Shown here: one piece after another, positions 5,147 through 27,302 of the stretch
Numbering within the stretch: position 1 is the stretch's first letter
Layout: the number at the start of each line of letters is the position of its first letter
NCBI GenBank assembly: GCA_963722275.1
Contig: CAVRMX010000040.1
Location: 50 to 64,049 of the forward strand
DNA length: 64,000 nt
Source of the DNA: an uncultured Actinomycetes bacterium
GTDB taxonomy: Bacteria > Actinomycetota > Actinomycetes > Streptosporangiales > Streptosporangiaceae
Reading direction: 5' to 3'
Notes under the pieces: model-generated
What the model was told of the DNA's origin: nothing
Databases searched by the model: none
What the model saw: only the letters and a program-made list of their open reading frames with translations
Made by a program: the position numbers and the translations under genes

Positions 5147-6034
5147 AGGTGACTCTGCTAGCCCGGGGGGACCCATCCCCCCAGACTCCCCTTGGACCCC
5201 CTCGGCCACCCTGCGGGGGGTACTAGTCGCGGTCGCGCACGGCAGCACGGACCCGCGCGCCTCGGCCACCATCGCGGAGCTGGCGGCGGTGGCCAGGGAG
5301 CGCTCGCCCGGGCTGGACCTGCGTACCGCCTTCCTCGGCCATGCCCCGCCGTCGCTGCCTCAGGTCCTGGGCACGATCGAGGCGGACCGCGAGGTAACCG
5401 TCCTGCCGCTGCTGCTCACGGCGGCGTACCACAGCAAGGCCGACCTCCCCCGCATGCTGGCCAGGACTTCGCGGCGGGTCAGGTACGGCGACACCCTCGG
5501 GCCGCACCCGCTGTTGCTGAGTGCGCTGGAACGCCGCCTCGCTGAGGCAGATCCCGAAGGCCTCGAGGACCCGGCGCGCACCGCGGTGGTGCTCGCGGCG
5601 GCCGGCTCCAGCGACCCCGAGGCGAATGCCACCATCTCCCGGATGGCGGCGCAGTGGCGGGCCAGGACCGGATGGTTCGCGGTCCGGCCGGCTACGCCTC
5701 GGCCGCAGAGCCCTCCCCCGCGGCGGCGGTAGCCGGCCTGCTGCGGGACGGGGCGCCACGGGTGGCGGTCGCGACCTACCTGCTGGCCCCGGGCCTGTTC
5801 GCCGACCGGATCCGCCAGGCCGCGCTGGCCGCGGGCGCGGTCGCCGTGTCCCCCGCGCTCGGCGCCCGTGCCGAGGTGGCGGACGTCCTGCTGGACCGGT
5901 TTGCCGAAGCGAGATCACAGCGGCGCAGCGCAGCACGAGTCAGCGCAGCAGAGTCAGCGCAAGAGTCAGCGCAGCACGAGTCAGCGCAGCACGAGTCAGC
6001 GCAGCACGAGTCAGCGCAGCATAAGTCGGGGTGA
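5139..6034 (+). pseudogene. cbiX: sirohydrochlorin ferrochelatase (CbiX/SirB type); reading frame broken by an apparent 1-nt deletion near 5692
   Basis: The N-terminal half (VAVAHGSTDP...LLLTAAYHSKADLP...AAAGSSDPEANA) is in the 5139 frame. The C-terminal half (YASAAEPS...RVAVATYLLAPGLFADRI) is in the 5654 frame. One extra base between 5692 and 5693 would give ...FAVRPAYASAAEPS.... The N-terminus carries repeat copy A and the C-terminus carries ESAQH repeats. Confidence 0.75.
5163..5220. repeat. G6/C6-hairpin dispersed repeat, copy A
   Basis: Core ccggggggacccatccccccagactccccttgga (5163-5196). Near-identical cores lie at 19346-19379 and 26872-26906. GGGGGGA-CCCA-TCCCCCC forms a perfect 7-bp stem. 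Confidence 0.85.
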
Positions 6035-6075
6035 CGTAAGCCGGGGCGACGTAAGTCGGGCGGGTAAATCTGGGT
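5937..6075. repeat. two adjacent families of about 15-bp tandem repeats
   Basis: Six units of gagtcagcgcagcac-type repeat (5937-6022, encoding ESAQH x3-4 in the cbiX tail). Then aagtcggggtgacgt / aagccggggcgacgt / aagtcgggcgggt / aaatctgggt (6023-6075). Confidence 0.9.
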
Positions 6076-6219
6076 AAAACTCCCGATAACCCTCGAGAAA
6101 ACCGAGGAACCCCGACCCGCTGGTCACGATCCGGTATCGTACGTCCCTCCGGGCATACGCTAACCCGGTAGAATCGGCCGCTGGCCGAACGCGACCCGAC
6201 TGGCCGCCAAAGGGGGCGA

Positions 6220-8335
6220 TTGCGTATCTGGCCGGGAACGCCATACCCGCTTGGTGCGACATGGGACGGATGGGGCACGAATTTCACCCTTTTTTCCGAG
6301 GTCGCGGAACGCGTAGAGCTTTGCCTCTTCGACGAGGCCGACGAGGGTAACGGCTCGCTCACCGAGACCAGGGTCGAACTGACCGAGATCGACGGCTTCG
6401 TCTGGCACGGTTACCTGCCCGGCATCGCGCCGGGGCAGCGCTACGGCTATCGCGTGCACGGGCCGTACGATCCGCCGCGCGGGCTGCGCTGCGAAGGGTC
6501 CAAGCTGGTGCTCGACCCGTACGGCAAGGCGGTCGAGGGTGACCTGCGCTGGGACGAGTCCCTGTTCGACTACCAGTTCGCCCACCCCAGGAAGCGCAAT
6601 ACCAGGGACAGCGCGCCGTACATGCCGAAGAACGTGGTCATCAACCCGTTCTTCGACTGGGGCAACGACCGGGCGCCGCAGATCCCCTACCACGAGACGA
6701 TCATCTACGAGGCACACGTCCGCGGGCTGACGCTGTGCCATCCGGAGGTCCCGGCGGCTCAGCGCGGCACCTACGCCGGGCTCGCCCACCCCGCGGTGAT
6801 CGCGCACCTGCAGCGGCTCGGGGTGACCGCCGTCGAGCTCATGCCGGTGCACCAGTTCGTCGCCGAGCAGTCCCTGGTCGCCCGCGGCCTGACCAACTAC
6901 TGGGGCTACAACACGATCGGCTTCCTGGCCCCGCACAACAGGTACTCCTCGGCTGGCCAGCGCGGTGAGCAGGTCGGCGAGTTCAAGTCGATGGTGAAGG
7001 CGCTGCACGAGGCCGGCATCGAGGTCATCCTCAACGTGGTCTACAACCACACCGCCGAGGGCGACCACATGGGGCCCACGCTGTCCTTCCGCGGTATCGA
7101 CAACGCCGCCTACTACCGGCTGTCGGACTCCGAGCGCTGGCGCTACCTGGACTACACCGGCTGCGGGAACAGCCTCAACGCCCGCAACCCGCACTCGCTG
7201 CAGCTCGTCATGGACTCGCTGCGGTACTGGATCCTGGAGATGCACGTCGACGGGTTCCGGTTCGACCTGGCCGCCGCGCTGGCCAGGGAACTGCACGACG
7301 TGGACCGGCTGTCCACCTTCTTCAACCTGGTCCAGCAGGACCCGGTGGTCTCCCAGGTGAAGCTGATCGCCGAGCCGTGGGACGTCGGCGAGGGCGGCTA
7401 CCAGGTCGGCAACTTCCCGCCGCTGTGGACCGAATGGAACGGCAAGTACCGCGACGCGGTCCGCGACTTCTGGCGCGGCCGGCCATCCGCCGTGCCGGAC
7501 TTCGCGTCCCGGCTCACCGGCTCGAGCGACCTTTACGCGACGAGCGGGCGCCGCCCGGTCGCCTCGATCAACTTCGTCACCTGCCACGACGGGTTCACCC
7601 TGAACAACCTGGTCAGCTACAACCACAAGCACAACGAGGCCAACGGCGAGGGAAACCGGGACGGCGCCGACGACAACCGCTCGTGGAATTGCGGCGCGGA
7701 AGGACCAGCCGACGATCCCGCCATCAATGAGCTGCGGGCCAGGCAGAAGCGGAACTTCCTGGTCACCTTGTTCCTGTCGCAGGGCGTCCCGATGCTGCTG
7801 GCCGGTGACGAGATGGGCCGCACCCAGGCCGGCAACAACAACGGCTACTGCCAGGACACCCAGCTGTCCTGGCTGGACTGGGGCCTGGCCGCCGGCGAGC
7901 AGGACCTGCTGCAGTTCACCGAGACGCTGGCGGGCCTGCGCCGCGACCACCCGGTGTTCCGCAGGCGCCGGTTCTTCCGCGGCCCGGGCCCGGACGGCGA
8001 ACAAGGCGACATCGTTCTGGCTCACCCCGGCCGGCGAGGTGATGACCGACTCGGACTGGGGCGCCAGCTACGCGAAGTCGCTCGCGGTGTTCCTCAACGG
8101 GGACGCGATCAGCGAGCCCGACCCGCGCGGCGGGAAGATCAGCGACGCCAAGTTCCTGCTGCTGTTCAACGCGCACAGCAATCCGCTCACGTTCACCCTG
8201 CCCGAGGCCAGCTACGCGGCCGGCTGGGAGGTCGTCATCGACACCTCGCTCGGGGTGCCCGGGGCGATCCACCCGCCGAAGAAGGAAATCGAGGTCCGCG
8301 ACCGCGCCGTCGTCGTGCTACGGTCCACCCAGTGA
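6220..8335 (+). pseudogene. glgX: glycogen debranching enzyme GlgX (GH13); frame break near 8011-8017
   Basis: TTG 6220 with AAAGGGGG upstream. Translation [17 protein letters not shown]..., plus GH13 motifs [22 protein letters not shown] and [10 protein letters not shown]. The C-terminal roughly 105 aa ([16 protein letters not shown]...VVVLRSTQ) lie in the 7727..8335 frame. The track ORF 6220..9078 reads through by chance into the next gene. Confidence 0.85.
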
Positions 8336-9078
8336 GCCCGCGCCAGCTGTTCCCGGTCGCCGCAGACCAGCCGGACCTGCCCGCACTGTATGCCTATCCG
8401 GACGGCCGGTGGCTGCGCGCCAACATGGTGGCGAGCGCGGACGGCGCCGCGACCCTGGACGGCGCCTCGGCGGGCCTGTCCTCCGACACGGACCGGCGGG
8501 TGTTCGCGCTGCTGCGCACGCTGTCCGACGTCATCCTGGTCGGCGCCGCGACGGCGCGCGCCGAGCGGTACAAGCCGGTCAGGCCGCGAGAGCTCTGGCG
8601 TGACCTGCGGGACGAAGGGTCCGGCCGGACGCTGACCCCGCCGATCGCGGTGGTCACCCGGCGGCTCGACCTCGACCCGGACAGCCCGCTGATTACCGCG
8701 GCCCCGCCGGACGCCCGCACGATCGTCATCACCACGGCGAAGGCCCCGCGGGACGTCCGGACCGCCATCGAGCCGCACGCCGACGTGATCATCGCCGGCC
8801 AGGAGACTGTCGACTTCGAGGCCGCGGTGAACGCGCTGGCCGAACGCGGCCTCCGGCGGATCCTCGCCGAGGGAGGCCCGCGCCTGCTCGCCCAGTTGCT
8901 CGAGGCCGGACTGCTGGACGAACTGTGCCTGACCATCGGCCCGCTGCTGGCCGGCCCGGGCGCGGGCCGGATCGTGGCGGGAACGGGGCCGGCCACCCCG
9001 CCGTTGCCGCTGAACCTGGCTCACGTACTGGCGGACGACGGCTTCCTGCTCTGCCGGTACACCAGGAAAGACCATTAA
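8332..9078 (+). CDS. RibD C-terminal domain (pyrimidine/dihydrofolate reductase-like) family protein
   Basis: GTG 8332 overlaps the glgX stop (GTGA). Translation VSPRQLF...[22 protein letters not shown]...[22 protein letters not shown] is typical of RibD_C family proteins. Confidence 0.75.
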
Positions 9079-9118
9079 CCCGAACGGGCCGGGCGCGTGC
9101 CCCGGCCACGCATCATGT

Positions 9119-10183
9119 TCAGGGAAGCTGGCCCGGGCGGCTGACGATGGCGGTCTGCAGGAGGGCGTCCCCGCCTTCCTGCCCTTGCTCGCCCCAGGTG
9201 GTCAGGCCCAGGTAGGCGTACGTGCCGGGGTCGAAGATGTTGACTGCCTTGCTGCCCTCGAACGACCAGCCCACGCCCACGCCGGGGCGCCCGCCGATGT
9301 CGCGCACGTGGGGCTCGACGATCAGCCCGGGCGTCGTGGCCAGGAACTCATAGAGCGCAGCCCGCTGAGCGGGCAGGATGTAGTCGGACTGGAGCATGAA
9401 GCCGACCGTCTTGGCCAGGTCGTTCAGGTTGCCGGGCTGGATCCCCTGCGTCTGCTGCAGGTATGAGGCCATCGCGCTCGCGCTGGTCGGCATGTCGGGG
9501 AAGTACGCGAGCACCGGGGTGCAGTGCGTGGTGACGACGGGCCCGTCCATGGGCACGCTGGTCCCGTACTTCTGCTTGTACTGCTCGGGGGTCACCGGCT
9601 TGCCGCCGAGGTGTAGCGGCTTGCCGCCGATTCCGGGCGTGCGGAAGCGCAACTCCCCGGTAGGACAACCGGAGATGGCCGAGGACTGGACCTTCCCCTG
9701 CGGACTGGTGGTGACCACCATGCCGTTCCGCTTCCCGTCCACGGACAGCCACGTCTGCACTACCGATTGCCCAGGTCCTCCCCCCACCTTCGTATACACG
9801 AACTGATCCGCCCGGGGCGCGACCGCCGGCTCGCTCAGCGCCGCCCGGGCTGCCCGGTCCAGTACCTCCCGAGCCGTCAGCTGGGCCGGCACCACAGCAG
9901 GCGCCGTCCCCCCCGAGCGGGTCGACGCGTGCGTCCCCACCAGGACTCCCGCCGTAATAGCGACGGCGGCGGCCACCGTAACGCCACCGATCGCTACACG
10001 CGCAGCAGGGCCGTGCCATTTCCGTCGCCGGCGTTCGGCCGCCGGCGGCGGAAATGCGTGCCGGCCCTGCTCTCCGTAGACCGCGATTCCCGCCACAACG
10101 CGCTGCCGTGGTGCTGATAGATCACGAAGCGAAGGCAGAGGCGCGTCAGGTGCCGCGTCCCGGAGCAGGTCGAGGTCATTCAT
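9119..10183 (-). CDS. membrane-anchored protein co-transcribed with the ECF sigma factor (putative anti-sigma/sensor partner)
   Basis: 354 aa. Its start overlaps the sigma-factor stop by 8 nt. It has one central hydrophobic segment (VAIGGVTVAAAVAITAGVLV) and an extracytoplasmic C-terminal domain. Confidence 0.55.
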   Translation of the reverse strand: MNDLDLLRDAAPDAPLPSLRDLSAPRQRVVAGIAVYGEQGRHAFPPPAAERRRRKWHGPAARVAIGGVTVAAAVAITAGVLVGTHASTRSGGTAPAVVPAQLTAREVLDRAARAALSEPAVAPRADQFVYTKVGGGPGQSVVQTWLSVDGKRNGMVVTTSPQGKVQSSAISGCPTGELRFRTPGIGGKPLHLGGKPVTPEQYKQKYGTSVPMDGPVVTTHCTPVLAYFPDMPTSASAMASYLQQTQGIQPGNLNDLAKTVGFMLQSDYILPAQRAALYEFLATTPGLIVEPHVRDIGGRPGVGVGWSFEGSKAVNIFDPGTYAYLGLTTWGEQGQEGGDALLQTAIVSRPGQLP

Positions 10184-10766
10184 TGTTCAGGATCTCCTCG
10201 TAGGTCGCGGCGGCCGGGGTGCTGGCCAGGGCCTGACGTATCTTCGTCCGGGCGCGGTGCAGCCGGGACCTGACGGTGCCGACCGGGATGCCGAGCGCAC
10301 GGGCCACCTCGTCGTAGCTGAGCTGCTCCCAGGCGATCAGCAGCAGGACGTCCCTGTCGGGCTCGGCGAGCCCGGCGAGCGCCTTAGCCAGCAAGGCGCG
10401 AACGGATTGCGCGGTCAGGTCGACCACGGTCCGTTCGGCATAATCGTTCTGAACCAGGACGGGACCCGCGGCTTGCCGCAGCCGCAACTGGCGGACCTCG
10501 TCCCGCCGGTGCTGGCCGACGAGGTTGGTGGCGATGCCGTACAGCCACGGCCGGGCGTCCCGGAAGCGGGGGTCGTCGCCGGCCCGTTTCCCGAATGCCA
10601 CCAGGAACGTCTCCGCCACCAGGTCATCGGCGGCCTGGCCGCCGACCCGGCGGGCGAGATAGCGGTGGATGTGCGGCGCGTGGCGGTCAAAGAGGGACGC
10701 GAAGAGATCGGGTTCGGCGCGGGACGCCTCGATCACGGCCGCGTCGTCAAGGGTCAGTGGTGTCAT
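10176..10766 (-). CDS. ECF (sigma-70 family) RNA polymerase sigma factor
   Basis: 196 aa. Region 2 (DDLVAETFLVAF...PWLYGIATNLV) and region 4 HTH (LSYDEVARALGIPVGTVRSRLHRAR). Confidence 0.85.
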   Translation of the reverse strand: MTPLTLDDAAVIEASRAEPDLFASLFDRHAPHIHRYLARRVGGQAADDLVAETFLVAFGKRAGDDPRFRDARPWLYGIATNLVGQHRRDEVRQLRLRQAAGPVLVQNDYAERTVVDLTAQSVRALLAKALAGLAEPDRDVLLLIAWEQLSYDEVARALGIPVGTVRSRLHRARTKIRQALASTPAAATYEEILNNE

Positions 10767-11042
10767 GCTCCGTCTCTTCGCTGGGCGGCTTTACCCGCTA
10801 TCCGCAGCAGCCGCCGACGGAGTTCACGGTGCCTTGGTCATGGGCGGGGCAGCAGGCCGCGCTCAACCGTTCGGCTGACCCGGTCCTGCTCGGCTGGTTC
10901 AGGGACGGCGCCGGGCGGGCTAGCTCACTGCACGATGACACGCCCTCGGACCGAGACGCTAGCCTGACGGAGGAAAGGCTCACCACGGCCTGCCCGGGGG
11001 ATCAGGGCGCCCCAGCCATCCGCGGAGACGGGAGAAGGGTCC

Positions 11043-12446: not shown

Positions 12447-12531
12447 CCACCATGATGAGGGCTTCTGCTGCTGCGTCACCGGAGACGGGAAGATAGCGTA
12501 ACTGAGGGGACCGGCAGGTAAGGAGCTGACG

Positions 12532-14571: not shown

Positions 14572-14589
14572 CGGCGGGGCCCAGCGCCG

Positions 14590-14754
14590 TCAGCCGGGGG
14601 CGCCGTCCACACCGATAGGTGCGCGGGCTCCAGCGCCGCGTTGACCACGTCGAGTCATCGTGCTCACCACCGCGGTCCCCGCCAGCATCAGCATGGTGAC
14701 GATGCCCACCGCCAGCGCGGTTCCTGGCCTCACCACACGAGGACGGCGGAGCAC
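14590..14754 (-). CDS. possible 54-aa single-pass membrane protein
   Basis: GTG 14754 with GGGAGGG 9 nt upstream. Hydrophobic core ALAVGIVTMLMLAGTAVVS. No recognisable family. The longer track ORF 14590..14886 overlaps the reactivase 3' end. Confidence 0.25.
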   Translation of the reverse strand: MLRRPRVVRPGTALAVGIVTMLMLAGTAVVSTMTRRGQRGAGARAPIGVDGAPG

Positions 14755-14807
14755 GGTCTCGTTCCCTCCCACGGGTATCACGGTACGTGGGCGGCGTTCC
14801 GGGAACG

Positions 14808-17067: not shown

Positions 17068-17602
17068 TCACGTTAGTCCCTCCAGTGACAGCTCTTCGGG
17101 GGATGCCCCGGGGACCATGCGGCGGCGCTCCAGTTCCATCAGGGCGATCACGGTGGTGTGGTAGCGGGCCTCGATGGCCTCGTCGGAGTACGGGTTGCGG
17201 GCCGGGTCGGGCGTGCCGCCCTTGGCGTGCCGCGCGGCGTTGGCGCCGAGCAGCCGGTAGAGCTCGGGGGTGACCGAGGGCGCCACCGAGTACAGCTCCA
17301 GGTTCGCCAGCGGGGCCAGGTCGCGGCGATGGATCAGCGCGGTGCCCTTGCCCTGCAGCCCGATTCCGATCCCCAGCCGGCCAGCCTGGCCGCGGCCAGG
17401 CCGATCCGGCCCAGGTCGACGCTGGCGTTGAAGCGGACGACCCGTCCGGCGCAGCCTTCCTCCTCCAGGCCCGCCAGCATCTCCCGCAGCACGTCCGTCA
17501 CCGCCAGGCCGGACAGGCACCGCCACACGTCCCGGCCGACGGCGGGCGAGACGCCGATGACGACGTCGCGGGGGTCCTGCCCGGGCCGGCCGGGCCGCTC
17601 AC
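17068..17602 (-). pseudogene. pduD: B12-dependent diol dehydratase medium (beta) subunit; at least two frame problems
   Basis: DPRDVVIGVSPAVG...LREMLAGLEEEGCAGRVVRFNAS is in the frame of ORF 17334..17864. GIGIGLQGKGTALIHRRDLAPLANLELYSVAP...ARYHTTVIALME is in ORF 17068..17526. The frame switches at about 17375-17380. No start codon lies in frame upstream of the first fragment. A GTGA junction at 17599-17602 fits only if another indel exists near 17576-17580. Confidence 0.8.
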
Positions 17603-19276
17603 GCCGAGCAACGGCACCGCGAACCGCGCCTGCTCGGCCCGCAGGTCGGCGACCCCGCGGGCCTGGCGGATGGCGTCGATCTCGGCCTGCCGGGACGGCG
17701 AGGGTTCGTAGCCGGTGCCCGGGCCCGCGTAGTCGTTCGGGTCGGTGACCAGGGACAGCACGCGCAACTGCTCGTCGAAGATGGCGGACGTCTGCAGGTA
17801 GTCGCCGGACAGCCTGGCCCGGGCGAAGGCCATGGTCCGTTCGGCCTCGTGGGAGTAGCCGCACTCGTCCAGGGCGGCCACGATGTCCACCACGGTCAGC
17901 CCGCGCTGGCGGATGGCGTGCGCCGCGCCCAGCACGGCCAGGGTGTCGGTCTCCCCCAGGTCCTTCGACCCGGCCGCGTCCACCGCCAGCTCCACGTGCT
18001 CGTCGGTGAAGTCCGCCAGGCCCAGGTGGGCGTAGACCGCGCGGCAGGCCTGGGCCGCCTCGCGGCGCAGCTCACCGATCCGGGCGGGGTCAACCGTCCG
18101 CAGGCCGCCGTCGACGCCCCAGTCCCGCTGCATGGCCAGGAAGTCGTCGATGTCCTCGGCGTTGAAGTTGCTCGGGCCGAACATGTTGTCGTAGCGCTGG
18201 ATCGACCCGAACCCGCTGAACGCGAAGTCCGAGCCCGCCAGCACGATCGGCAGCGTGCGGGAGGTCCGGCGCATGTCAGACTCGCTCATCAGCGCGTCAT
18301 TGCCCGAGCAGGACTCCAGGTTGCGCATCATCACCATGACGTTCTCGGCCATCAGCTCGCGCAGCCCGCCCGGCACCGCGGCGGCCACGCTGGCACCGTC
18401 GATCCCGCCGTTCTGCACGCCCTGGGCGCCGATGGCCCGGGCCAGCGCCACGCAGCGCGCCTCCAGGTAGAGCATCGACTGGCCCTGCGCGCCGGCCATC
18501 AGGACCTCGGCGCCGGCCCCCGAGGACACCCGCATCTTCATGCCGCGGGAGGCGTAAGCGGAGGTGAGGAAGGCCTTCGACCACGGGGTATCGTCGCCGT
18601 CTGTGAACACCTGCTCGGTGCCGTACAGCGAGACGGTCTCGGCGTAGGAGGTCAGCCCGCGCATGCCGAGCTCGAGCTCCATGGCCTCCTCGACGGAGCA
18701 CTGGATGAGCACGCCGTCGGCGCCGAACGCCGCCCCGATCAGGCAGGCCACCGCGTTGCTCGGCGCGTCGCCGAGCACCGGCACGGTGGTCTCGACCTCG
18801 CGGAACCCGAACGCCGCCGCGGTGGCCGCGTCGGCGGCGAGCAGCAGCGGGTCGTCGAGCCGGTTGGTGACGTGCGCCTGGTTGCTTGGCGTGCGGCGGG
18901 CGCGCAGCTTGGTCATCGCCATGACCAGTTCGGGCGGGCGGAGCTGGGCCAGCACGCGGGCCAGCTTGGCCGGGGTGGCGCCGGCGCTCAGCCTGACGAT
19001 CTCGTGCCGCGGCACGGCGGGGTCGACCAGGAGGCGGGCGAACGCCACGTCGGACAGGGCCATCGCCTCGCCCGCGGCGCTCAGGTCGAGGCCGTGCCGG
19101 GCGATGTAGGTGTCGATCGAGTCGAACTCCGCCTCGGGCACGCCGTCCAGCTCGGTCACCCGGCCGCCGGCCACGGCCAGGCTGGCCGCCGGGTCGTTCG
19201 GCGAGCGGAGCGCGGCCAGCCCGAGTCCGGGGTCCTCGATGGCGAAACCGTCCAGGTTGACCCGCTGCCGGTCCAT
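17498..19276 (-). CDS. pduC: B12-dependent diol/glycerol dehydratase large (alpha) subunit
   Basis: Colinear with PduC/DhaB1 (SPNDPAASL, TELDG, QCSVEEAMELELGMRG, SGNDALMSESD, NDYAGPGTGY). Homology ends about 17650. The last roughly 50 codons of the literal ORF overlap the beta-subunit homology in another frame, so the true 3' end is uncertain. Confidence 0.85.
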   Translation of the reverse strand: MDRQRVNLDGFAIEDPGLGLAALRSPNDPAASLAVAGGRVTELDGVPEAEFDSIDTYIARHGLDLSAAGEAMALSDVAFARLLVDPAVPRHEIVRLSAGATPAKLARVLAQLRPPELVMAMTKLRARRTPSNQAHVTNRLDDPLLLAADAATAAAFGFREVETTVPVLGDAPSNAVACLIGAAFGADGVLIQCSVEEAMELELGMRGLTSYAETVSLYGTEQVFTDGDDTPWSKAFLTSAYASRGMKMRVSSGAGAEVLMAGAQGQSMLYLEARCVALARAIGAQGVQNGGIDGASVAAAVPGGLRELMAENVMVMMRNLESCSGNDALMSESDMRRTSRTLPIVLAGSDFAFSGFGSIQRYDNMFGPSNFNAEDIDDFLAMQRDWGVDGGLRTVDPARIGELRREAAQACRAVYAHLGLADFTDEHVELAVDAAGSKDLGETDTLAVLGAAHAIRQRGLTVVDIVAALDECGYSHEAERTMAFARARLSGDYLQTSAIFDEQLRVLSLVTDPNDYAGPGTGYEPSPSRQAEIDAIRQARGVADLRAEQARFAVPLLGVSGPAGPGRTPATSSSASRPPSAGTCGGACPAWR

Positions 19277-19308
19277 GAACCGTACTCTGCCGACTGGCGT
19301 GTTGGCGC

Positions 19309-19414
19309 GGGGGGGCGACCCCCCGGGATCCCCCCGCTGTTCCTGCCGGGGGGACCCATCCCCCCGGACCCCCTTGGGAGGGGCTGCCCGCCCCCCCGTT
19401 CCCCCCCGGCCCCC
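19309..19414. repeat. G6/C6-hairpin dispersed repeat, copy B (intergenic, between the GntR gene and the pduC-like gene)
   Basis: Core ccggggggacccatccccccggacccccttggga at 19346-19379. It is flanked by further GGGGGGG-N-CCCCCC modules and fills most of the 141-bp spacer. Confidence 0.85.
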
Positions 19415-19417
19415 TAG

Positions 19418-20206
19418 TCATACCGCCGCCTGGGGGTGCAGCTCGACGACCCGGGCCCGGCCGGGGACGGCGCGGGACGTGCCGCCCTCGGTGCGGACGA
19501 CGATCCGGGTCCGGTCGGCCCGGAACAGGTCGCGGGAGAACTCGATCGGCTCGCCGTCGGGGTCGCTGGTCGTCCTGGTGATGGCCATCAGCGGCGCTCC
19601 TGGGTCCACGTCGAGGATGGCCGCCTCGTCCGCCGAGGCGAGGACCACCTCGATCCGCTCCACCGCGCCGGTGGGCTCGGCGCCGAAGTGCTCCTCGAGC
19701 AGCTCGTAGACCGAACCCCCGAGCGGCAGCTCAAGCAGGCCGGGGAAGCGCCGGGCCGGGAACCTGGCGTGCTCCAGGGAGAACGGGCTGCCGTCCGCGA
19801 GCCTGATCCGCACCAGGTCGATGACCAGGTCGCCGGGCCGGGCATGCAGCGCCTGCGCGGTAATGTCGTCCGCCTCGGCCAGCCGGGCGCTGAGCACCCG
19901 GGTCCCGGCCACCACGCCCTGGCTGCGCAGCAGCGCGGGCACGCCGACGATCCGGGACAGGTCCCGCTCGATCTTGCCCTTGGCCACGAAGGTGCCGCCG
20001 CCGCGGCCAGGCACCCGGCGGACCACGCCGCCGTCGGCGAGAACCGCGAGCGCCTGGCGCAGCGTCGCCCGGCTGACCCCGAACTCCGCCGCGAGCGCCC
20101 GCTCGGCGCCCAGCCGCTGCCCGGGGCGCAGCCGGCCGCTGCCGATCTGCTCGGCCAGGGCGCGCCTGACCTCCTCCGGCGTCCGTGCTGGCGGACTCTC
20201 GGTCAC
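19418..20206 (-). CDS. GntR-family (HutC/UTRA subfamily) transcriptional regulator
   Basis: GTG 20206 overlaps the SDR stop (GTGA). Winged-helix region [43 protein letters not shown], then a UTRA-like effector domain. The upstream part of track ORF 19418..20614 is in-frame read-through over the SDR gene. Confidence 0.85.
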
Positions 20207-21006
20207 GCGGAACCCGCCGCCATCGCTTCGGGTGACTCGGGCAGCACCTGGCCGCCGTCCACCACGATCGTCTGGCCGGTGATGTAGGCGGCCTCGTCGG
20301 TGGCCAGGAACAGGGCGGCGTAGCCGATCTCGTCGACGGTGCCAAGCCGGCGCATCGGGATCGCGGCGGTCATCCCGCTCGCGTAGTTCGAGCCGAGGTC
20401 GGCCAGGCCTTCGGTGGCGATGTTGCCCGGCAGGACCGCGTTGACGGTGATGGCCTTGGGCGCCAGCTCGATCGCGGCGGTCCGCATGAAGCCGAGCTGG
20501 CCGGCCTTGCTCGCGCCGTAGTGCGTCCAGCCGGGGAAGCCGGTGATCGGCCCGGTGATGGACGAGGTGAGGATGACCCGGCCGCGGCCCGAGGCCGCCA
20601 GGGCAGGCAGGCACGCCTGGACGCTGAGCACCGTGCCCTTCAGGTTGGTGCCGAACACCTGGTCAAGATCGGATTCGGTCAGGTCCTCGAGGCGGGCCTC
20701 GGGGAAGATCCCGGCGTTGGCGCAGAGCACGTCGATGCCGCCGAGGCGCTCCCGGGCGATCGCGGCCATCCGGCGGCAGTCCTCCCGGCTGGCCACGTCG
20801 GCCAGCACGAACGAGACCTCACCGGGCGGGCCGGCCGCGGCGGCCAGGGCGTGCAGCTCCTCGGCGGCGGCCCGGGCGGTGTCCGAGTCCCGCCCGGTGA
20901 TCAGCACCTTCGCGCCGCTGCGGGCGAACACGCTGGCGATCCCCTTGCCGATCCCGCGGGTGCCGCCGGTCACCACCACGGCACGGCCCGCGATCGATGT
21001 GAACAT
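20203..21006 (-). CDS. short-chain dehydrogenase/reductase (candidate 1-amino-2-propanol/aminoacetone dehydrogenase)
   Basis: 267 aa. [12 protein letters not shown] cofactor motif and a Y-x3-K catalytic motif (YGASKAG). The specific role is inferred from the RMM-type locus context. Confidence 0.8.
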
Positions 21007-21018
21007 GGCAGGTCCCTC

Positions 21019-22026
21019 TCAGTGAGTGCTTAGGTACGACTCCGCAAGGTCACAGCTGCCCTGCGTGTATCCGGCGCCGAGTTCGGCGGCGATGTCCACG
21101 GCCCGGTGCGAGCCGATCCACGCGACCAGCAGCAGCCGCCGGAACATGATGAACGTCCAGATCTCCGCCTGGTCCTCGGCGGACAGCCGGCCGGCCTTCC
21201 GGTAGCCCTCGAGCCAGCTGTCCACCAGGGCGGGGACGCCGGGCTCGTGCTCGAAGAAGCTGACCGATGTGCCCAGGTCGTACAGGTACCAGCTGAATCC
21301 GGAGTCGTCGAAGTCGATGACGCTGACCGACCCGTCGTGCACCAGCAGGTTGGCCAGCCGGGTGTCCGCGTGCACCAGGCCGTACCGGGCCGGGCCTGAG
21401 CCGAACGCCCGCAGCCGGGCGCGGAGCACGTCGTCCAGCCGGGACAGGACCCGGTGCTCGGACGGCCCGACGCCGATGCCGTCCTGCCAGCGGCCCCAGC
21501 GGGCCTGGCGGCCGAACGCCGACGCGTAGTCCCAGTGGAACCGGGTGAACCAGGGCGGCCGGGACCATTCCCTGGCGTGCCGGTGCATCCGCGCGGTGAT
21601 CTCGCCCAGCTCGGCGAAATGGGTAGCCGCCAGCGCCGGTTCCCCGCCCGGTTCGGTGCCCGGCAGGAACTCGAACCGCACGCAGTACCGCTCCGCCGTG
21701 CTGCCCCGCTCCCGGACGGTGACCACCCGCCGCCCGTCGGCGGCCGGCACCACCCGCGGCGTGCGCACGCCGGCCTCCGCGCGCAGCGCGTCCATCCAGG
21801 CCAGCTCCGACGCGATCTCCTGCTCGGTGTGGTAGCCCAGCCGGTGCACGCGGAGCACCGTGGGCCCGGTCTCGGCGCCGGACACCAGGAAGGTCGCGTT
21901 CTCCGAGACGTTGAGCAGCTCGACGGACGCCCCGGGGTGACCGCCGTAGGCGGCCAGCGCGTCCTGCGCGCAGCCGCGGACCCGGTCCATGACGTCGCCG
22001 CCGGCCGACAGGTCGTGCTCGCTCAT
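21019..22026 (-). CDS. aminoglycoside-phosphotransferase-fold kinase (candidate 1-amino-2-propanol kinase)
   Basis: 335 aa. APH catalytic loop LVHADTRLANLLV and IDFDDSGFSWYLYDL. The substrate is inferred from the locus type. Confidence 0.8.
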   Translation of the reverse strand: MSEHDLSAGGDVMDRVRGCAQDALAAYGGHPGASVELLNVSENATFLVSGAETGPTVLRVHRLGYHTEQEIASELAWMDALRAEAGVRTPRVVPAADGRRVVTVRERGSTAERYCVRFEFLPGTEPGGEPALAATHFAELGEITARMHRHAREWSRPPWFTRFHWDYASAFGRQARWGRWQDGIGVGPSEHRVLSRLDDVLRARLRAFGSGPARYGLVHADTRLANLLVHDGSVSVIDFDDSGFSWYLYDLGTSVSFFEHEPGVPALVDSWLEGYRKAGRLSAEDQAEIWTFIMFRRLLLVAWIGSHRAVDIAAELGAGYTQGSCDLAESYLSTH

Positions 22027-22028
22027 GG

Positions 22029-22697
22029 CTACCCCGCGTGCTCCCGGCCGGCCACGGCGGTGAGCACCTCGAGGATCTCGCGCTGCGCGCGCCGGACCTC
22101 GGCGGTCGGCCCGCTCAGGTAGATCCGCCCGGCCGCGCCGATCATCGACACGTCGACCAGCGTAACGCCCGGCGCGGCCCGTTCGGCCTCGTTGGCCGCG
22201 ACCGCCGCGAACAGGGCCGGGGTGACCTCGCTGACGCCCAGCGTGTCCCCGGGGATGATCATGGAGCCGGAGCGGTTCCTGTTGATGATGATCGCGTGCG
22301 CGTCGGTCACGTCCTCGATCACGTCGGAGAACAGGATCCGCGGCCTCAGCTGGTCCTTCTCGTCGGCGCCCAGCCCGTCCAGGATCGCCTGCCCGGCCCG
22401 GCGCACGTCGCCGGAGTCCCGCCCGTGCACCTCGAGCACGCCGAACTGCCGCTCGACGAACACGATGCCCGGCTCGACCGCGGGCACCGCGCGCAGCGCC
22501 AGGTCGGTGACCCGCTCGATGGCCAGCGCGGGCGCCACCTCGACGATGAGCGCGTGCTGCCCGGCGAACGGCGGGTAGCCGCGGGCCCGGGTCGGGGTGC
22601 CCAGGTACGCGGCGAACTGCGGCTGCAGGTCGCGCACCAGGAGGTAGACCCGCAGCTCAGCCGCTCGCGGGTCGCCCGGGTCTGCGGCGCTAGTCAC
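22029..22697 (-). CDS. BMC shell protein with two BMC-like domains (tandem/BMC-T-like), paralogue 1
   Basis: 222 aa. The second half shows the BMC pattern ([41 protein letters not shown]). The first half is a divergent copy ([28 protein letters not shown]). Clear paralogue of 23669..24271. Confidence 0.75.
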
Positions 22698-22971
22698 CGC
22701 TGATCTTGAAGTGCCTGGCCAGGTCGGGGTGCGGGCGCGGGATCACGTGGACCGAGACGAGCTCGCCCACGGTCAACGCGGTCTCGGCGCCGGCCTCGGT
22801 GGCCGCCTTCACCGCGCCGACGTCCCCGACGATCGTCACGGACACCAGCCCGTCGCCGACCTCCTCGCGGCCGACGATCGTCACGTTCGCCGCCTTGACC
22901 ATGGCGTCTCCCGCCGCGAGCGCGGCCACGTACCCCTTGGTCTCGATCAGTCCGATCGCGTTATCCGCCAT
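22690..22971 (-). CDS. BMC-H hexameric shell protein (PduA/EutM-like)
   Basis: 93 aa. Canonical BMC domain sequence [63 protein letters not shown]. Confidence 0.95.
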
Positions 22972-22974
22972 CGT

Positions 22975-23241
22975 TCACTCTCCTTCCTGCTGGGTCCCCG
23001 GGTCCGGGTCGATAGAGCCGATGATCAGGGCGTCGACGGGCGGCGGCTTGCCGGCGAACCAGGCCGCCGCGACCGAGCCCTGGGTGATGAGCACGCGCTC
23101 GCCCACCCCGCTGCCGAGCACGTCGAAGGCGATCAGCCGCTGTCCGGTGCCCTCGGCCTCCACCTCGAGGAAGGCGCCGTTGGGCAATTCGGCCAGCCGG
23201 CGCGTGGCCCAGACGCTCCCGATCACCGTTGCGGTCAGCAT
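22975..23241 (-). CDS. BMC-P pentameric vertex protein (EutN/CcmL family)
   Basis: 88 aa. MLTATVIGSVWATRRL...AFDVLGSGVGERVLITQGSVAA...VDALIIGSID matches the EutN/CcmL pattern. Confidence 0.9.
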   Translation of the reverse strand: MLTATVIGSVWATRRLAELPNGAFLEVEAEGTGQRLIAFDVLGSGVGERVLITQGSVAAAWFAGKPPPVDALIIGSIDPDPGTQQEGE

Positions 23242-23668
23242 CAGCGCTCCTTCTCGATCTGCACGCCGCTCGCCCTGGCCCGGTCCCTGGCCAGCGGGGT
23301 GAGCACGGCACCGCGGCCGAGCACCAGCCGCTGGCCGGCCCGCGCCGCTGCTTTGATCACCGCTTCGGTCACCGCGCCGCGCTCGATGCGGCGCACCAGC
23401 GCGGATTCCCCGGCCCGTTCGGCCCCATGGGCGGCACCGGCCGGGACCGGCGCGGCGGCTGCGGCGGCGGATGGGGCGGCCAGCCTGAACCGTTTCCGGC
23501 CGGACCGGAGCTCCTCACGCTGATCCGGGTCAAGGTCCAGGAGGCGTGTCACGAACGCCGCCAGGCCTTCGTCGGTTGAAAGGTTAACCGTTTCGGTACC
23601 GGTCAGGCCGTTAGGCAGCACGTCCCGGAGGACCTCGCGAACCAGTGCGCGGAGCTCGTCGAGGTCGC

Positions 23669-23672
<4 letters not shown>
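23241..23672 (-). CDS. 143-aa BMC-locus protein: encapsulation-peptide-like N-terminus, Ala/Pro linker, small C-terminal domain of unknown function
   Basis: ATG 23672 overlaps the upstream stop (ATGA). N-terminus MSDLDELRALVREVLRDVL resembles the PduD targeting helix. Ala/Pro linker AAPSAAAAAAPVPAGAA. C-terminal domain ...AVTEAVIKAAARAGQRLVLGRGAVLTPLARDRARASGVQIE. Confidence 0.6.
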
Positions 23673-24271
<599 letters not shown>

Positions 24272-24273
24272 GG

Positions 24274-25881
24274 TCAGCCTCCGGCCAGCTGGGATAGCTC
24301 TTCGAGGATGAGCCTGCGGATCTCCTCGCGCAGCGCCGAGGTATCGGGCCCAGAACCATTAGGTTCCGAACGGCCCGGGCCGCCTGCCCGTTCTCCGCCG
24401 CCTGCGGGCGGCGGGCGGTCGCCCCGCTGGTTGGACGCCACCGGGTACGGGGGTACCGGGCCGGCCGGCGCCTGCCAGGGCACCAGCCCGGCGAAGTCGC
24501 CGAACGGCTCGGCCGGGTCGCGGTTGTAGGCCAGCCGCGTCCACTGCACCAGGTGGCTGGGGTGCAGGTTCTCCGCCACCGAGGACCGGCCGAAGAACCC
24601 GGTGCCGATCGTCATCGTGGGGGCCAGGTTGGTCTGGTAGCCCGCGCTGCCCAGGCTGCTGCCCACGTTGACGGCGACCCGCAGGACCTCGACCGCGGCC
24701 CCGTACTCCATGATCACCTGCGGGTCGGTGCTGTGGATGGCCGCCGAGTGGCCGCGGCCGGACAGCCGCAGCACGGCCCGCGCGGCGCCGATCCCGCGCC
24801 GGGCGGACGGCACCCGGACCAGGCCGAGCACCGGGCAGAGCTTCTCGTGGGCCAGCGGTTCCTCCGGCATCACCAGGTCGAACGGCGCGAGCAGGACACG
24901 GGTGCGGTTCGGTACCCGCAGGCCCGCCTCGGCCGCGATCCAGCTCGCGTCCTTGCCGACGAAGCGGATGTCGAACCGCCCGCCTGGGAACAGCATCGCG
25001 GATACGCGGTCCCGCTCGCCCGCCTCGAGCAGGTAGGCGCCGGCCTGCTTCAGCTGCCGCAGCAGCGGGGTCGCCGCCTGCTCGGCGACGATCAGCACCG
25101 ACTCGCTGGTGCACAGGACCGAGTTGTCGAAGCTCTTGCTGTCCACGATCCGCCTGGCCGCCTTGGCCAGGTCGGCGGTCGCGTCCACCAGCACCGGCAC
25201 GTTGCCCGGCCCGACGCCGAGGGCGGGCGTGCCCGAGCTGTAGGCGGCGCGCACCACGGGAACGCCGCCGGTCGCGACGATGACGCTGGTGCGCTCGTCG
25301 GTCATCAGCGCGTCGATCAGCGGCACCGACGGCTCGTCCACCACCTGGATGACGCCGTCGGGGGCACCCGCCGCGACGGCCGCGGCGCCGAGGGTGCGCG
25401 CGGCGTCGGCGCAGACCTCCTTGGCCAGCGGGTGCGGGCTGAGCACGACCACGCTGCGGGTCATCAGCGCGAGCAGGCACTTGAAGAACACCGTGGCGAC
25501 CGGGTTGGTCGACGGGGTAAGCGCCAGCACCACGCCCGCCGGGCGCGGCACCTCGACGATCTTGGCTTCGGCGTCGATCCGCGGCGTCACGTAGTCGTGG
25601 CCCGCGTAATAGTCCACGATCCCGGTGCTGCAGGCGATGTTCTTGAGCACCTTGTGCTCGGCCACGCCGAACCCGGTCTCGCGCACCGCCCAGTCCGCGT
25701 ACTCGCGGGCCTTGGCCGCGCCGGCCGCGGCGGCGGCGCGCACGATCGCGTCCACTCCAGCCTTGTCGTACCGGGCGAAGGCGCGCGCGGCCCACTCCGC
25801 CCGCTGCAGCATGGCCCGCGCCCGCGGCACCCCCGCCGGGTCGGTGAGCAGCTCGGCCACGCTGATCCGCGCCTCGGTCAC
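24274..25881 (-). CDS. CoA-acylating aldehyde dehydrogenase (PduP/EutE class) with a C-terminal encapsulation peptide
   Basis: GTG 25881 overlaps the upstream stop (GTGA). Catalytic-Cys motif SFDNSVLCTSES. C-terminal Pro/Gly linker, then the amphipathic helix SALREEIRRLILEELSQL. Confidence 0.9.
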   Translation of the reverse strand: MTEARISVAELLTDPAGVPRARAMLQRAEWAARAFARYDKAGVDAIVRAAAAAGAAKAREYADWAVRETGFGVAEHKVLKNIACSTGIVDYYAGHDYVTPRIDAEAKIVEVPRPAGVVLALTPSTNPVATVFFKCLLALMTRSVVVLSPHPLAKEVCADAARTLGAAAVAAGAPDGVIQVVDEPSVPLIDALMTDERTSVIVATGGVPVVRAAYSSGTPALGVGPGNVPVLVDATADLAKAARRIVDSKSFDNSVLCTSESVLIVAEQAATPLLRQLKQAGAYLLEAGERDRVSAMLFPGGRFDIRFVGKDASWIAAEAGLRVPNRTRVLLAPFDLVMPEEPLAHEKLCPVLGLVRVPSARRGIGAARAVLRLSGRGHSAAIHSTDPQVIMEYGAAVEVLRVAVNVGSSLGSAGYQTNLAPTMTIGTGFFGRSSVAENLHPSHLVQWTRLAYNRDPAEPFGDFAGLVPWQAPAGPVPPYPVASNQRGDRPPPAGGGERAGGPGRSEPNGSGPDTSALREEIRRLILEELSQLAGG

Positions 25882-27302
25882 CGCCGTCCCCCCTTGGCCG
25901 CGTCGTCCCTGGCCGTGGCGATGGCCACCTCGGTCCGCTCGAGCAGTTCCTCGCAGAGCGCCGGGGTGAGCAGGATGCCCGGCTTGTACTGCAGCACGCG
26001 GGAGTCGAGGGTGGAGAAGATCGCCCACACCCCGTTCTCGTAGAGCCGCTTCATGACGAACTTGGCGCCCTGCGGATGGCCGAACTCCAGGCCCATGACC
26101 AGCCCGTCCTGCCGGATGCCGGTGAACCAGTCCGGGTACTGGGCCTGGATCTGCGCCAGCCCGCCGGTGAACATCCCCGCGATGTAGTGCACCATCGACC
26201 TGACCTCGGGCCGGCAGGTGATCTCCAGCGTCTTGAGCGCCGTTACGCAGCCGAGCTCGGCACCGCCGAACGTGGACATGTGCGCGAAGCCGTCCTCGGT
26301 CAGCCAGCCCGCGGCGGCCTCCGTGGCCAGCACCACGCTGACCGGGTACATGCCGCCGGAGATGCCCTTTCCTGAGACCAGGATGTCCGGGTTGACGCCA
26401 TGCTTGCTGATGGCCCACAGCTCGCCGGTGCGCATCAGCCCGGTCTGCACCTCGTCGGCGATGTAGAGCGCGCCGTAGCGCTCACACAGCCGCTTGACCC
26501 CGGCCAGGTAGCCGGGCGCGGGCAGCGGGAAGCCGTAGGTGGCCGGGATCGTCTCCATGATCACCGCGGCCACGTCCCGGCCGCGCAGCGCCGCCTCCAT
26601 CGCGTCCAGGTCGTTGAACGGCACGTGGGTGAACTCGTCAGGACGGTCGGACAGGAACAGGGTCGCGAACCGCTCGTCGCCGGTGGCCACGGCCAGCCCG
26701 GTGTGCCCGTGGTAGGCCTTGGCCACCGAGACGATGCCGCGCTTCTTCGTAGCGTGACGCGCGCTCTTCAGCGCGATGTCGATCGCTTCCCCGCCACCGC
26801 TGCCGTACATCACCTTTGTTAGCCGCGTTGCCTCGGGGGGAACGATCCCCCCAGACCCCCCTGCTCCTTTTCCGGGGGGACCCATCCCCCCGGACCCCCC
26901 TTGGGAGAGACCCATCCTCCCAGACCCCCCCTGGGAGGCCCCTTGCGGGGCCCCCGATGCCGGTGCGGCCGCCGCCGCCGTGGCGTTGACCAGGGCTTCG
27001 GCGAGGGCGGTGCGGGCCAGGCTCGGGAAGTGATGGTTGCCGATGTCGAAGCGCTGCATGGCCGCGGTCACGGCGGCGGCCACCTCGGGGTTGCGGTGGC
27101 CGAGGTTGTAGGTGCCGCCGTTGAGGTGGACGTCGATGAGGCGCTTGCCCTCGACGTCGTAGATGAAGTAGCCCTCGCGGCGGTCGATGACCAGCGGGAC
27201 CCCGGAGTCGATCCAGAACTGCGTCTTGTCCGGGTTCCAGAACTGCTTGGACTTCGCCAGCATGTCCTGCTTCGAGGCGAATGAGATCAGTTCCTCGGTC
27301 AC
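25878..27302 (-). CDS. class-III aminotransferase-fold PLP enzyme (candidate 1-amino-2-propanol O-phosphate phospho-lyase) carrying an insertion of about 45 aa
   Basis: Aminotran_3 motifs (HLNGGTYNLGHRNPEV, ADEVQTGLMRTGELWA, SGKGISGGMYP). Start chosen at GTG 27302 (GGAGG 6 nt upstream). GTG 27317 and the track start 27437 are alternatives. The insert comes from repeat copy C. Confidence 0.85.
   Translation of the reverse strand: MTEELISFASKQDMLAKSKQFWNPDKTQFWIDSGVPLVIDRREGYFIYDVEGKRLIDVHLNGGTYNLGHRNPEVAAAVTAAMQRFDIGNHHFPSLARTALAEALVNATAAAAAPASGAPQGASQGGSGRMGLSQGGSGGMGPPGKGAGGSGGIVPPEATRLTKVMYGSGGGEAIDIALKSARHATKKRGIVSVAKAYHGHTGLAVATGDERFATLFLSDRPDEFTHVPFNDLDAMEAALRGRDVAAVIMETIPATYGFPLPAPGYLAGVKRLCERYGALYIADEVQTGLMRTGELWAISKHGVNPDILVSGKGISGGMYPVSVVLATEAAAGWLTEDGFAHMSTFGGAELGCVTALKTLEITCRPEVRSMVHYIAGMFTGGLAQIQAQYPDWFTGIRQDGLVMGLEFGHPQGAKFVMKRLYENGVWAIFSTLDSRVLQYKPGILLTPALCEELLERTEVAIATARDDAAKGGRR
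26835..26955. repeat. G6/C6-hairpin dispersed repeat, copy C (inside the aminotransferase-fold gene, in frame)
   Basis: Core ccggggggacccatccccccggaccccccttggga at 26872-26906, plus related modules (ggggggaacgatcccccc, gagacccatcctcccagacccccc). On the minus strand it translates as APQGASQGGSGRMGLSQGGSGGMGPPGKGAGGSGGIVPP. Confidence 0.85.

Follow-up and report, generated by a model that had tools for sequence, protein, structure and literature searches.

A dispersed family of G6/C6-hairpin mosaic repeats, mostly in frame where they lie within genes, in uncultured Streptosporangiaceae

A 64-kb stretch of DNA from an uncultured actinobacterium of the family Streptosporangiaceae (contig CAVRMX010000040.1 of assembly GCA_963722275.1; hereafter the window) carries three copies, A, B and C, of a short repeat that is built from hairpins of six G and six C. 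Copy A lies in the first codons of cbiX/sirB, copy B between the genes for a GntR/UTRA regulator and for the large subunit of a diol dehydratase, and copy C antisense within the gene for a class-III aminotransferase (Table 1). Pfam matches support the labels PAPS reductase, CbiX, GntR/UTRA, diol-dehydratase large subunit and class-III aminotransferase for the genes concerned. The three copies belong to a dispersed, structured and modular family, whose genic members are mostly in frame and whose occupancy and unit number vary among close relatives. We propose that the family probably spreads as a selfish, non-autonomous repeat that is tolerated in coding sequence.

An earlier reading of the window (the sequence-only reading) had noticed a core of about 34 nt at three places. 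The 20-mer CCGGGGGGACCCATCCCCCC indeed has exactly three matches in the window, all on the + strand, at 5163, 19346 and 26872, where 0.05 matches per window are expected by chance and none of 100 shuffles reached four. Degenerate units lie at 26833 and 26902 in addition to the three exact matches. Scanning the window with a profile made from 105 related units returned just five units at three loci, and a scan for chains of G and C runs of at least five returned the same three loci and no others. The core recurs in all three copies but is not a repeat by itself: it is one unit within a larger element, and each window copy is a 70-133 nt mosaic of G6-loop-C6 hairpin units. The further GGGGGG-N-CCCCCC modules that were said to flank the core are seen around it in copies B and C.

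The elements are built mainly from three types of hairpin unit: H1 (GGGGGG-ACGA/GCGA-CCCCCC), H2 (GGGGGGA-CCCA-TCCCCCC) and H3 (GGGGC-TGCCC-GCCCC, with a compensated variant GGGAC-TGCCC-GTCCC). Copy A covers codons ~4-28 of cbiX and encodes the peptide DSASPGGPIPPDSPWTPSATLRGV. The ATG of cbiX (5139) overlaps the stop codon of cysH (ATGCCTGA), and there is no in-frame ATG, GTG or TTG between copy A and the conserved VLVAVAHGS, so that the claim of an N-terminal location without an alternative start downstream holds. Copy B occupies, as had been proposed, the spacer between the GntR gene and the pduC-like gene, a gap of 141 nt from the GntR/UTRA stop codon (19418-19420) to the start of the dehydratase large subunit (19276). 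Its modules are, in order, a left end GCGTGTTGGCGC, H1 (GGGGGGGCGACCCCCC), GGGAT-C6, the linker GCTGTTCCTGCC and H2, followed by GGAC-C5-TTGG, H3 (GAGGGGCTGCCCGCCCCCCC), GTT-C7 and GGCCCCCTAG. A terminator and promoter scan of copy B gave no site and no terminator-like structure, and Rfam, whose only match was an unrelated glycine riboswitch, gave none at an element, either in the whole window at gathering thresholds or in copy B with permissive settings. The reading frame that contains the GntR gene (19418..20614) is longer than the GntR and UTRA domains require.

Copy C begins with the left end CCGCGTTGCCTC, followed by H1' (26835-26852), AGA-C6 and the linker TGCTCCTTTTCC; its middle consists of H2 (26874-26891), GGA-C6-TTG and a degenerate H2 (26904-26921), and it ends with AGA-C7-TGG and a terminal GGCCCC-TTGC-GGGGCC hairpin. 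It lies in frame within the aminotransferase gene, on the coding strand opposite to its own orientation, which agrees with the sequence-only reading, and it is translated as ...QGASQGGSGRMGLSQGGSGGMGPPGKGAGGSGGIVPPEATR. Another example of a predicted element-encoded peptide fused to a host protein is QGGSGGMGPPGK. The open reading frame (ORF) of the aminotransferase has 519 aa, and the annotated start lies 45 codons downstream, which gives the protein P0001.

Table 1. Repeat copies in the 64-kb window and the genes that surround them
Feature	Position	Strand	Remarks
Copy A, mosaic element	5153..5222	+	left end CTCTGCTAGCCC, H2 hairpin, tail AGACTCCCCTTGG, right module ACCCCCTCGGCCACCCTGCGGGGGGTA
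Copy A, H2 hairpin	5165..5182	+	GGGGGGA-CCCA-TCCCCCC
cbiX/sirB (sirohydrochlorin ferrochelatase)	5139..6034	+	host of copy A; Pfam CbiX
Copy B, intergenic mosaic element	19297..19417	+	adjoins the GntR stop codon
Copy B, H2 hairpin	19348..19365	+	stem extended to CCGGGGGGA/TCCCCCCGG
Diol/glycerol dehydratase large-subunit gene	17498..19276	-	Pfam; transcriptionally downstream of copy B
GntR/UTRA regulator gene	19418..20200	-	Pfam; stop adjoins copy B; putative start
Copy C, mosaic element	26823..26955	+	antisense to host gene
Class-III aminotransferase (P0001, 474 aa)	25878..27302	-	host of copy C; Pfam

The anatomy of the family was derived from 135 occurrences of the 18-nt H2 hairpin across the window and 116 fetched loci. 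A left end of 12 nt (CWGTGYTRGCCC, consensus C-W-G-T-G-Y-T-D-S-C-Y-C) immediately precedes the first G run, and the positions outward of it are random. The motif TGYTAGCC occurs 26 times in 0.94 Mb, and because 17-20 of these occurrences are attached to elements, the left end is part of the element and not a target site. The units follow one another head to tail in every multi-unit element, each consisting of G6-loop-C6, three nucleotides (RGA), a second C6 and a linker (GCTCCT, TCTTTYCC or TTG). H2 units form arrays with a period of 30 nt, from two up to four or five units (L023, L030, L085, L098), and the distances between hairpins peak at 30, 33, 32 and 39 nt. At the right end only CCCCCC-TTG(G) (CCCCCCTTG(G)) is shared.

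Position tables of the aligned copies show asymmetric ends without terminal inverted repeats; the right flank resembles the inverted left end only in sporadic copies (L103, L005, L022). Target-site duplications were found in none of the pairs of filled and empty sites (L118/L117, L120/L119, and the window or L122 against L121). Copy A has CTAG on both sides (5158, 5223), and CTAG as a target or target duplication was dropped as a candidate, since this flanking pattern does not generalise to the other elements. That neither terminal inverted repeats nor target duplications are seen makes a classical DDE transposase less likely and points towards mobilisation via a hairpin-recognising single-strand mechanism or via templated repair.

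Folding bears out the 7-bp stem with a loop of 4 nt that had been proposed for GGGGGGA-CCCA-TCCCCCC, and in copies B and C the stem is longer, with 9-10 bp. The fold z-score is -3.8 for copy C and modest for copies A and B, because dinucleotide shuffles preserve the G and C runs. In the stem of H2, positions -1/+1 covary: 53 copies have T-A, 60 have C-G and four are exceptions (Fisher p = 2e-28). Since this closing base pair covaries, the hairpin itself appears to be the feature that is selected or copied. At -2/+2, C-G is found in 120 copies and T-G in 12, and inner stem pairs compensate as well, for example GGGGC..GCCCC versus GGGAC..GTCCC.

With one genome searched per GTDB species, the exact 18-nt hairpin was found in at least 116 stretches. 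About 112 of those listed are members of the family, and they come from about 40 metagenome-assembled genomes (MAGs) at species level with up to 10 loci each. Nearly all hosts are Streptosporangiaceae or uncultured Actinomycetes/Actinomycetota from Danish soils (MFD), peat (SPRUCE) and other soils. The sources are independent of one another and comprise MFD long-read MAGs, Illumina metagenomes from JGI and ENA, and SPRUCE and JOPF MAGs. Four 18-mer matches, two in Oscillibacter and one each in L087 and L090, look like chance. A few full elements lie on short contigs that were binned elsewhere, namely L022, a 1.8-kb contig of a Myxococcaceae MAG with a full left end, H1, H2 and tail, and L062 in a Solibacteraceae MAG; here, mis-binning is probably the better explanation than horizontal transfer. 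The 18-mer has no copies in IMG/VR viral contigs or in the phage and plasmid collections that were searched.

The density of elements is about 45 per Mb, with three in the 64-kb window and, leaving out the hits that seeded the search, about 40 extra ones in 875 kb of fetched loci. Extrapolated, this would amount to a few hundred copies per genome. In one MAG (CAWDBS), L063 (3521-3653) and L075 (196-327) share 433 nt at 99% identity, which comprise an element and its flanks and probably reflect assembly redundancy rather than recent transposition. Full-text searches of the literature gave no prior description of the sequences and nothing that links Streptosporangiaceae to repetitive extragenic palindromic (REP) sequences. 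The 51-aa insert peptide found no match at E <= 1e-3 among 1.8 billion protein representatives, a result that is uninformative, as the query is short and of low complexity. Taken together, the dispersal suspected in the sequence-only reading is borne out, as the core is scattered over more than 100 unrelated loci of about 40 related MAG species, and the repeats likely constitute a previously undescribed, lineage-specific family of short interspersed mosaic palindromic repeats.

The coding context of the elements was determined by frame analysis based on G+C content at third codon positions, which left 144 evaluable elements, 79 of them with both flanks confidently coding. Forty of these lie inside an ORF that has the same frame on both sides and is stop-free through the element, while 35 have co-directional coding flanks in different frames. 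The remainder consists of two elements with equal frames but a stop codon, one between convergent genes and one between divergent genes; 65 further elements have at least one flank that is not confidently coding. At least 53 of the 79 elements with coding flanks, about two thirds, are read through in frame. The class with different frames was re-examined by slightly different criteria, which gave 36 cases. In 13 of them the upstream frame passes through the element and stops 13-48 nt beyond it, in 10-12 cases at an ATGA, GTGA or TGATG overlap of stop and start codon. With the frame running through to this overlap, the upstream protein ends in a C-terminal tail made by the element. In 11 others the upstream frame stops 3-16 nt before the element, and about eight of these have a start codon at the junction, so that the element becomes the N-terminus of the downstream protein, in the same arrangement as copy A. 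The remaining 12 may be homopolymer frameshifts, either real or due to nanopore error. Altogether, about 20 elements are C- or N-terminal extensions at coupled gene junctions, and 40-49 elements of the fetched loci lie in frame within ORFs of unrelated enzymes. These numbers substantiate the suggestion that the repeat is tolerated as a peptide rich in Gly, Pro and Ser.

The hairpin units are stop-free in all six frames. So is copy C with its 132 nt, a property that 2-3% of controls share. Among 28 in-frame cores, 15 are sense and 13 antisense with five of the six frames in use, and 19 are in the phase that yields GG..PP (GGTHPP or GGMGPP). The host proteins include a PAS/HisKA kinase, ArgJ, DinG-like, UvrD-like and Lhr helicases, a GH38 mannosidase, xanthine dehydrogenase, glycogen phosphorylase, tricorn protease, GltB, S9 peptidases, NuoG, a LuxR regulator, a dGTPase, an ArgD-like aminotransferase, a MurC-like ligase and isochorismate synthase. 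About 12-13 of 20 insertions lie between Pfam domain envelopes, and the others split a domain at a loop. In GltB, the same inter-domain site is filled in two species (L066, 1751-1852; L068, 5370-5452). The two inserts differ in their internal frame (RGVRGDGSPRE in L066 and QGGSGGQGGLGG in L068) and the frame is restored at the ends, which implies compensated indels within the G/C runs.

Orthologues that lack the element exist for both genic copies in the window; together with the dispersal, this is the opposite of what would have refuted the sequence-only reading. Empty CbiX orthologues start with M-x-x-x-(x)-VLVAVAHGS; they thus have an N-terminus of 4-5 residues and the same start, with the ATG overlapping the cysH stop codon. 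Across the orthologues the N-terminus carries +0 to +47 residues, and those that are not empty have 3 to 43 further residues between codon 3 and VLVAVAHGS. The site is empty in L121, which probably comes from a contig of the closest relative. L122 carries a left end, H1', H2 and the right module, which is copy A plus one 33-nt unit, and in L123 a solo left end remains. In L124 the element lies in the orientation opposite to that in the window and in L122, and at least two independent insertions must therefore have occurred at this site. That the same sites are used repeatedly is in keeping with strong filtering for positions that permit insertion, with target preference as a possible alternative cause. 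At a distance from the repeat, cbiX of the window has a 1-nt deletion at about 5692/5693 (region 5685-5700; CCGGC-TACGCC in the window, CGGCTTAC in L122 and CGGCCTAT in L121) that leads to a frameshift. The C-terminal half of the protein resumes in the frame of ORF 5654..6034, and a pseudogene and an assembly error are alike possible. The cbiX reading frame ends in an (SAQHE)n tail, encoded by a 15-nt tandem repeat of about five copies (GCACGAGTCAGCGCA, 5918-6033).

For copy C we compared 109 aminotransferase orthologues with at least 77% identity. The insertion site is a loop between SLARTALAE and K-V-MYGSGGGE, which has 11 residues (ALVSSAPEGLT) in 46 of the 109 orthologues and 22-60 residues with element peptides such as QGGSGGMGPPG, GGKGFPPG and GGLGGIVPPE in others. 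Relative to the ancestral loop of 11 residues the orthologues thus range from +0 to +49, with copy C at +49. An AlphaFold model of P0001, made from a shallow alignment, was unusable (pLDDT 45), and an alignment to the solved E. coli putrescine aminotransferase was used instead. Here, residues 107-164 of the query correspond to nine residues (134-142), which places the insert between a helix and the strand leading to the SG-x-E motif. In a paralogous aminotransferase (L095), an element in the other orientation occupies the homologous loop.

On a tree built from the remainder of the aminotransferase, the filling of the loop is patchy. Closely related pairs differ in occupancy: the flanks are 95-97% identical between L117 (empty) and L118 (one unit) and 96-98% identical between L119 (empty) and L120 (full element). 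In L120, native CGCCAGGCC (codons G-L-A) has been swapped for the synonymous left end TGCTAGCCC. The idea that precise excision made the tree patchy was rejected as unprovable, because homologous recombination between strains explains the pattern equally well.

From these observations we favour, as probable, a REP-like selfish and non-autonomous repeat that is tolerated in coding sequence, in the manner of the Rickettsia palindromic elements (RPEs). The family would spread through the genomes of an uncultured clade of Streptosporangiaceae, and the element would be, or recently have been, copied to new sites. Because the units are stop-free and their common lengths are multiples of three (30, 33 and 39 nt), insertions could survive at permissive places. 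Such places would be loops at the protein surface, linkers between domains, and the opening or closing codons of genes that are translationally coupled, where the elements would be translated as Gly/Pro/Ser-rich peptides, and selection would retain only insertions that leave frame and fold intact. Unit number and composition would then be altered by slippage or recombination among the G/C runs and the 30-nt units, and homologous recombination between strains would shuffle filled and empty alleles. A slippage or recombination hotspot had been offered in the sequence-only reading as the alternative to a mobile element. Such a process probably does change unit number, with the 30-nt arrays and the additional 33 nt of L122 as examples, but it cannot explain the dispersal.

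Several observations count against selfish spread of a coding-tolerant element. No RAYT-like protein (RAYT, REP-associated tyrosine transposase) was found by tblastn with E. coli RayT in the window and the loci, about 1 Mb in total, and clustering of 665 ORFs from the loci gave no recurrent gene family linked to the elements. No pair of long copies identical to each other was seen at loci that are not orthologous, and the copies thus give no evidence of very recent transposition. The filled aminotransferase alleles also replace about 18 native nucleotides and bear no clean cut-and-paste signature. Only 51% of the distances between hairpins are divisible by three, the CTAG of the left end yields a stop codon in one frame per strand, so that whole elements are not always stop-free, and homopolymer errors in nanopore MAGs may account for some of the elements with flanks in different frames. 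Two subfamilies, and not many independent events, may be part of the reason for the stem covariation. Strand bias is weak and inconsistent: the association of orientation with GC skew has p = 0.06, neighbouring elements agree in 28 cases and disagree in 15, and adjacent loci on the same contig in relatives are concordant in four cases and discordant in five. The three window copies do share one orientation, as had been pointed out, but this is not significant (chance p = 0.25).

Other explanations have to be weighed against this background. It is unlikely that the elements are host-functional cis-elements, kept by selection for their DNA or RNA structure and not by selfish spread; candidate roles would be those of an mRNA stabiliser, an attenuator, a spacer, a donor of Shine-Dalgarno sequences at coupled junctions or a binding site for nucleoid or topology proteins. 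The covarying stem, an 18-mer that stays identical across species with diverged flanks, and the T-G variant at -2/+2, which would pair on one strand only, agree with such a role. So do the many copies that lie 13-33 nt upstream of a coupled start, where the purine-rich GGGAG(G) or GGGAA of the element ends takes the Shine-Dalgarno position; for these junction copies, and for intergenic ones, a host function is conceivable. A common function is hard to reconcile with nearly equal use of both orientations relative to transcription (15 sense, 13 antisense) and with copies at loops and linkers inside unrelated enzymes. Moreover, close relatives function without copies, copy number and composition vary freely at a given site, and there is neither a U-tract terminator nor a match to an Rfam family. 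An origin in place is improbable, that is, the repeated emergence of G/C hairpin tracts through slippage or template switching in a genome of 72% G+C, without mobility. It is true that unit number clearly changes, probably by slippage or recombination, that empty sites are already rich in C and G runs (for example GCACCCGAGGGC) and that filled alleles resemble replacements and not clean insertions. Yet parts that are not repetitive are identical at more than 100 unrelated loci, namely the ACCCAT loop, the GCTCCT and TCTTTCC linkers, the 12-nt left end and the RGA-C6-TTG tail; TGYTAGCC is nearly always attached to an element, and the 20-mer is rare by chance.

Selection on the peptide, with a Gly/Pro-rich linker or motif spread by recombination as a protein module, would account for the preference for the GG..PP phase among in-frame cores and for linkers and termini as insertion sites. 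We regard it as highly improbable, as the five frames in use give the unrelated peptides GGMGPP, GGTHPP, RGDPSP, RGDGSP and PGGPIPP, a large share of the copies is intergenic or has a non-coding flank (copy B included), and it is the DNA and not the peptide that is conserved, as the differing internal frames of the GltB orthologue inserts illustrate. That the elements are an artefact of sequencing or assembly, such as chimeric or adapter-like G/C-rich sequence, is almost inconceivable: G6/C6 homopolymers are error-prone in nanopore assemblies and several elements show apparent changes of frame, but the elements turn up in independent projects that used different technologies, keep the reading frame, and occupy conserved orthologous positions at which their variation is structured. 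Somewhat more room, though still little, is left for a mobile element that is specifically adapted to life inside coding sequence and copied by hairpin- or microhomology-templated repair, and whose outward-facing ends resemble Shine-Dalgarno sequences, so that it can land in coupled junctions without breaking them. Templated repair would explain both the replacement of native bases by synonymous element sequence and the absence of inverted repeats and duplications. If this were true, hundreds of housekeeping genes in a widespread soil lineage would owe to the element an ongoing supply of new loops, linkers and protein tails, and also of frameshift switches at G/C homopolymers.

The favoured reading, a selfish repeat tolerated in coding sequence, has its parallel in the elements RPE-1 to RPE-10 of Rickettsia (Ogata et al. 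2000; summarised in PMC10969869 and PMC3733652). In both cases short palindromic repeats are scattered over a single lineage and sit in frame within many unrelated housekeeping genes, at positions that the protein fold allows; about half of the copies are translated, and a dedicated transposase is known for neither. There is no evident sequence relationship, and as the pure G/C stems and the host make homology very unlikely, the likeness is one of analogy and not of membership. The hosts differ as well: free-living soil actinobacteria with 72% G+C here, an AT-rich, obligate intracellular alpha-proteobacterium there. While RPEs are single palindromes of ~100-150 bp, the present units are G6/C6 hairpins in head-to-tail mosaics with a 30-nt array period, their peptides are Gly/Pro-rich, and many copies sit at coupled gene junctions.

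With REP sequences and bacterial interspersed mosaic elements (PMC3733652) the family shares stem-loops of 20-40 nt with covarying stems, here of 7-9 bp around a 4-nt loop, hundreds of copies, mosaics with short motifs, and the lack of terminal inverted repeats and target duplications. Intragenic copies of REPs are known in Opitutus terrae and R. conorii, and the text of the REP survey does not mention Actinomycetota (PMC3733652). Unlike REPs, the present elements have no GTAG/CGTC tag at the end of the stem, as CGTC occurs only inside the H1 loop on the other strand. Head-to-tail arrangement, their rule, is rare or absent in REPs, in which head-head and tail-tail dimers predominate. REPs are predominantly extragenic and downstream of ORFs, whereas the present family is mostly intragenic, with only 2 of 79 elements between convergent or divergent genes, and no RAYT was found for it in ~1 Mb of sequence.

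MIRUs (mycobacterial interspersed repetitive units; Supply et al. 1997, summarised in PMC12548453) are likewise actinobacterial and consist of short direct-repeat units between co-directional genes, with polymorphic unit number and an open frame that connects with or overlaps the stop and start codons of the neighbours and preserves translational coupling. In the present family, such placement holds for a subset, the 13 elements that reach an NTGA-type overlap and about eight that follow a coupled start, copy A among them. MIRUs are non-palindromic, 40-100 bp long and confined to intergenic junctions, in contrast to hairpin units of which 40-49 copies lie deep in ORFs, and again there is no evident sequence relationship. 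[quoted passage not shown] Their defining terminal inverted repeats and target-site duplications were sought here and not found, and no parent insertion sequence is known for the present family. Of the label 'REP/MITE-like' in the sequence-only reading, the REP-like dispersed structured repeat thus stands, but the MITE half does not. Subterminal hairpins, asymmetric ends and the lack of inverted repeats and duplication recall IS200/IS605-type (HUH, PATE-like) elements; these have a strong orientation bias with respect to replication direction, for which there is no convincing counterpart here. We therefore file the family as a new family and architectural variant among short interspersed palindromic repeats, neither a tagged REP nor a MITE.

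The family would provide a second, independent and much larger natural example of selfish palindromic DNA colonising coding sequence in frame, for which most of the documentation comes from Rickettsia, along with some intragenic REPs. As the host is free-living with a large genome of high G+C content, relaxed selection of the kind found in reduced intracellular genomes cannot be the cause here. The elements also constitute a natural experiment that shows where, among the loops, linkers and termini of conserved enzymes, 10-50 extra residues are tolerated, with examples in GltB, NuoG, ArgJ, the MurC-like ligase, aminotransferases and helicases. For work on MAGs, they are a sequence marker for the lineage and a source of hypervariable indels that disturb the alignment and clustering of orthologues and the calling of start codons, and frameshifts in long-read MAGs, both real and artefactual, are likely to occur at their G6/C6 runs. 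As elements without terminal repeats, target duplications and a known transposase, they may offer a lead to new mobilisation mechanisms.

Elsewhere in the window, a perfect 16-nt tandem repeat (GCCGGGAGACAGCAAC, four copies, 2171-2234) lies about 360 nt upstream of a sulfite/nitrite reductase ORF (2593..4272). An imperfect 15/30-nt tandem repeat with at least six copies ((GGTCTCGCCNGCTGG)n, 48521-48670) is probably a repetitive coding stretch. Several stretches of 47-83 nt in 22093-22554 and 23715-24167, about 1.62 kb apart, have 71-81% identity, a similarity that suggests two tandem paralogous genes. On the minus strand, 61465-61557 matches the glycine riboswitch aptamer (Rfam RF00504, 62.7 bits, E = 1.3e-10), which is unrelated to the elements.

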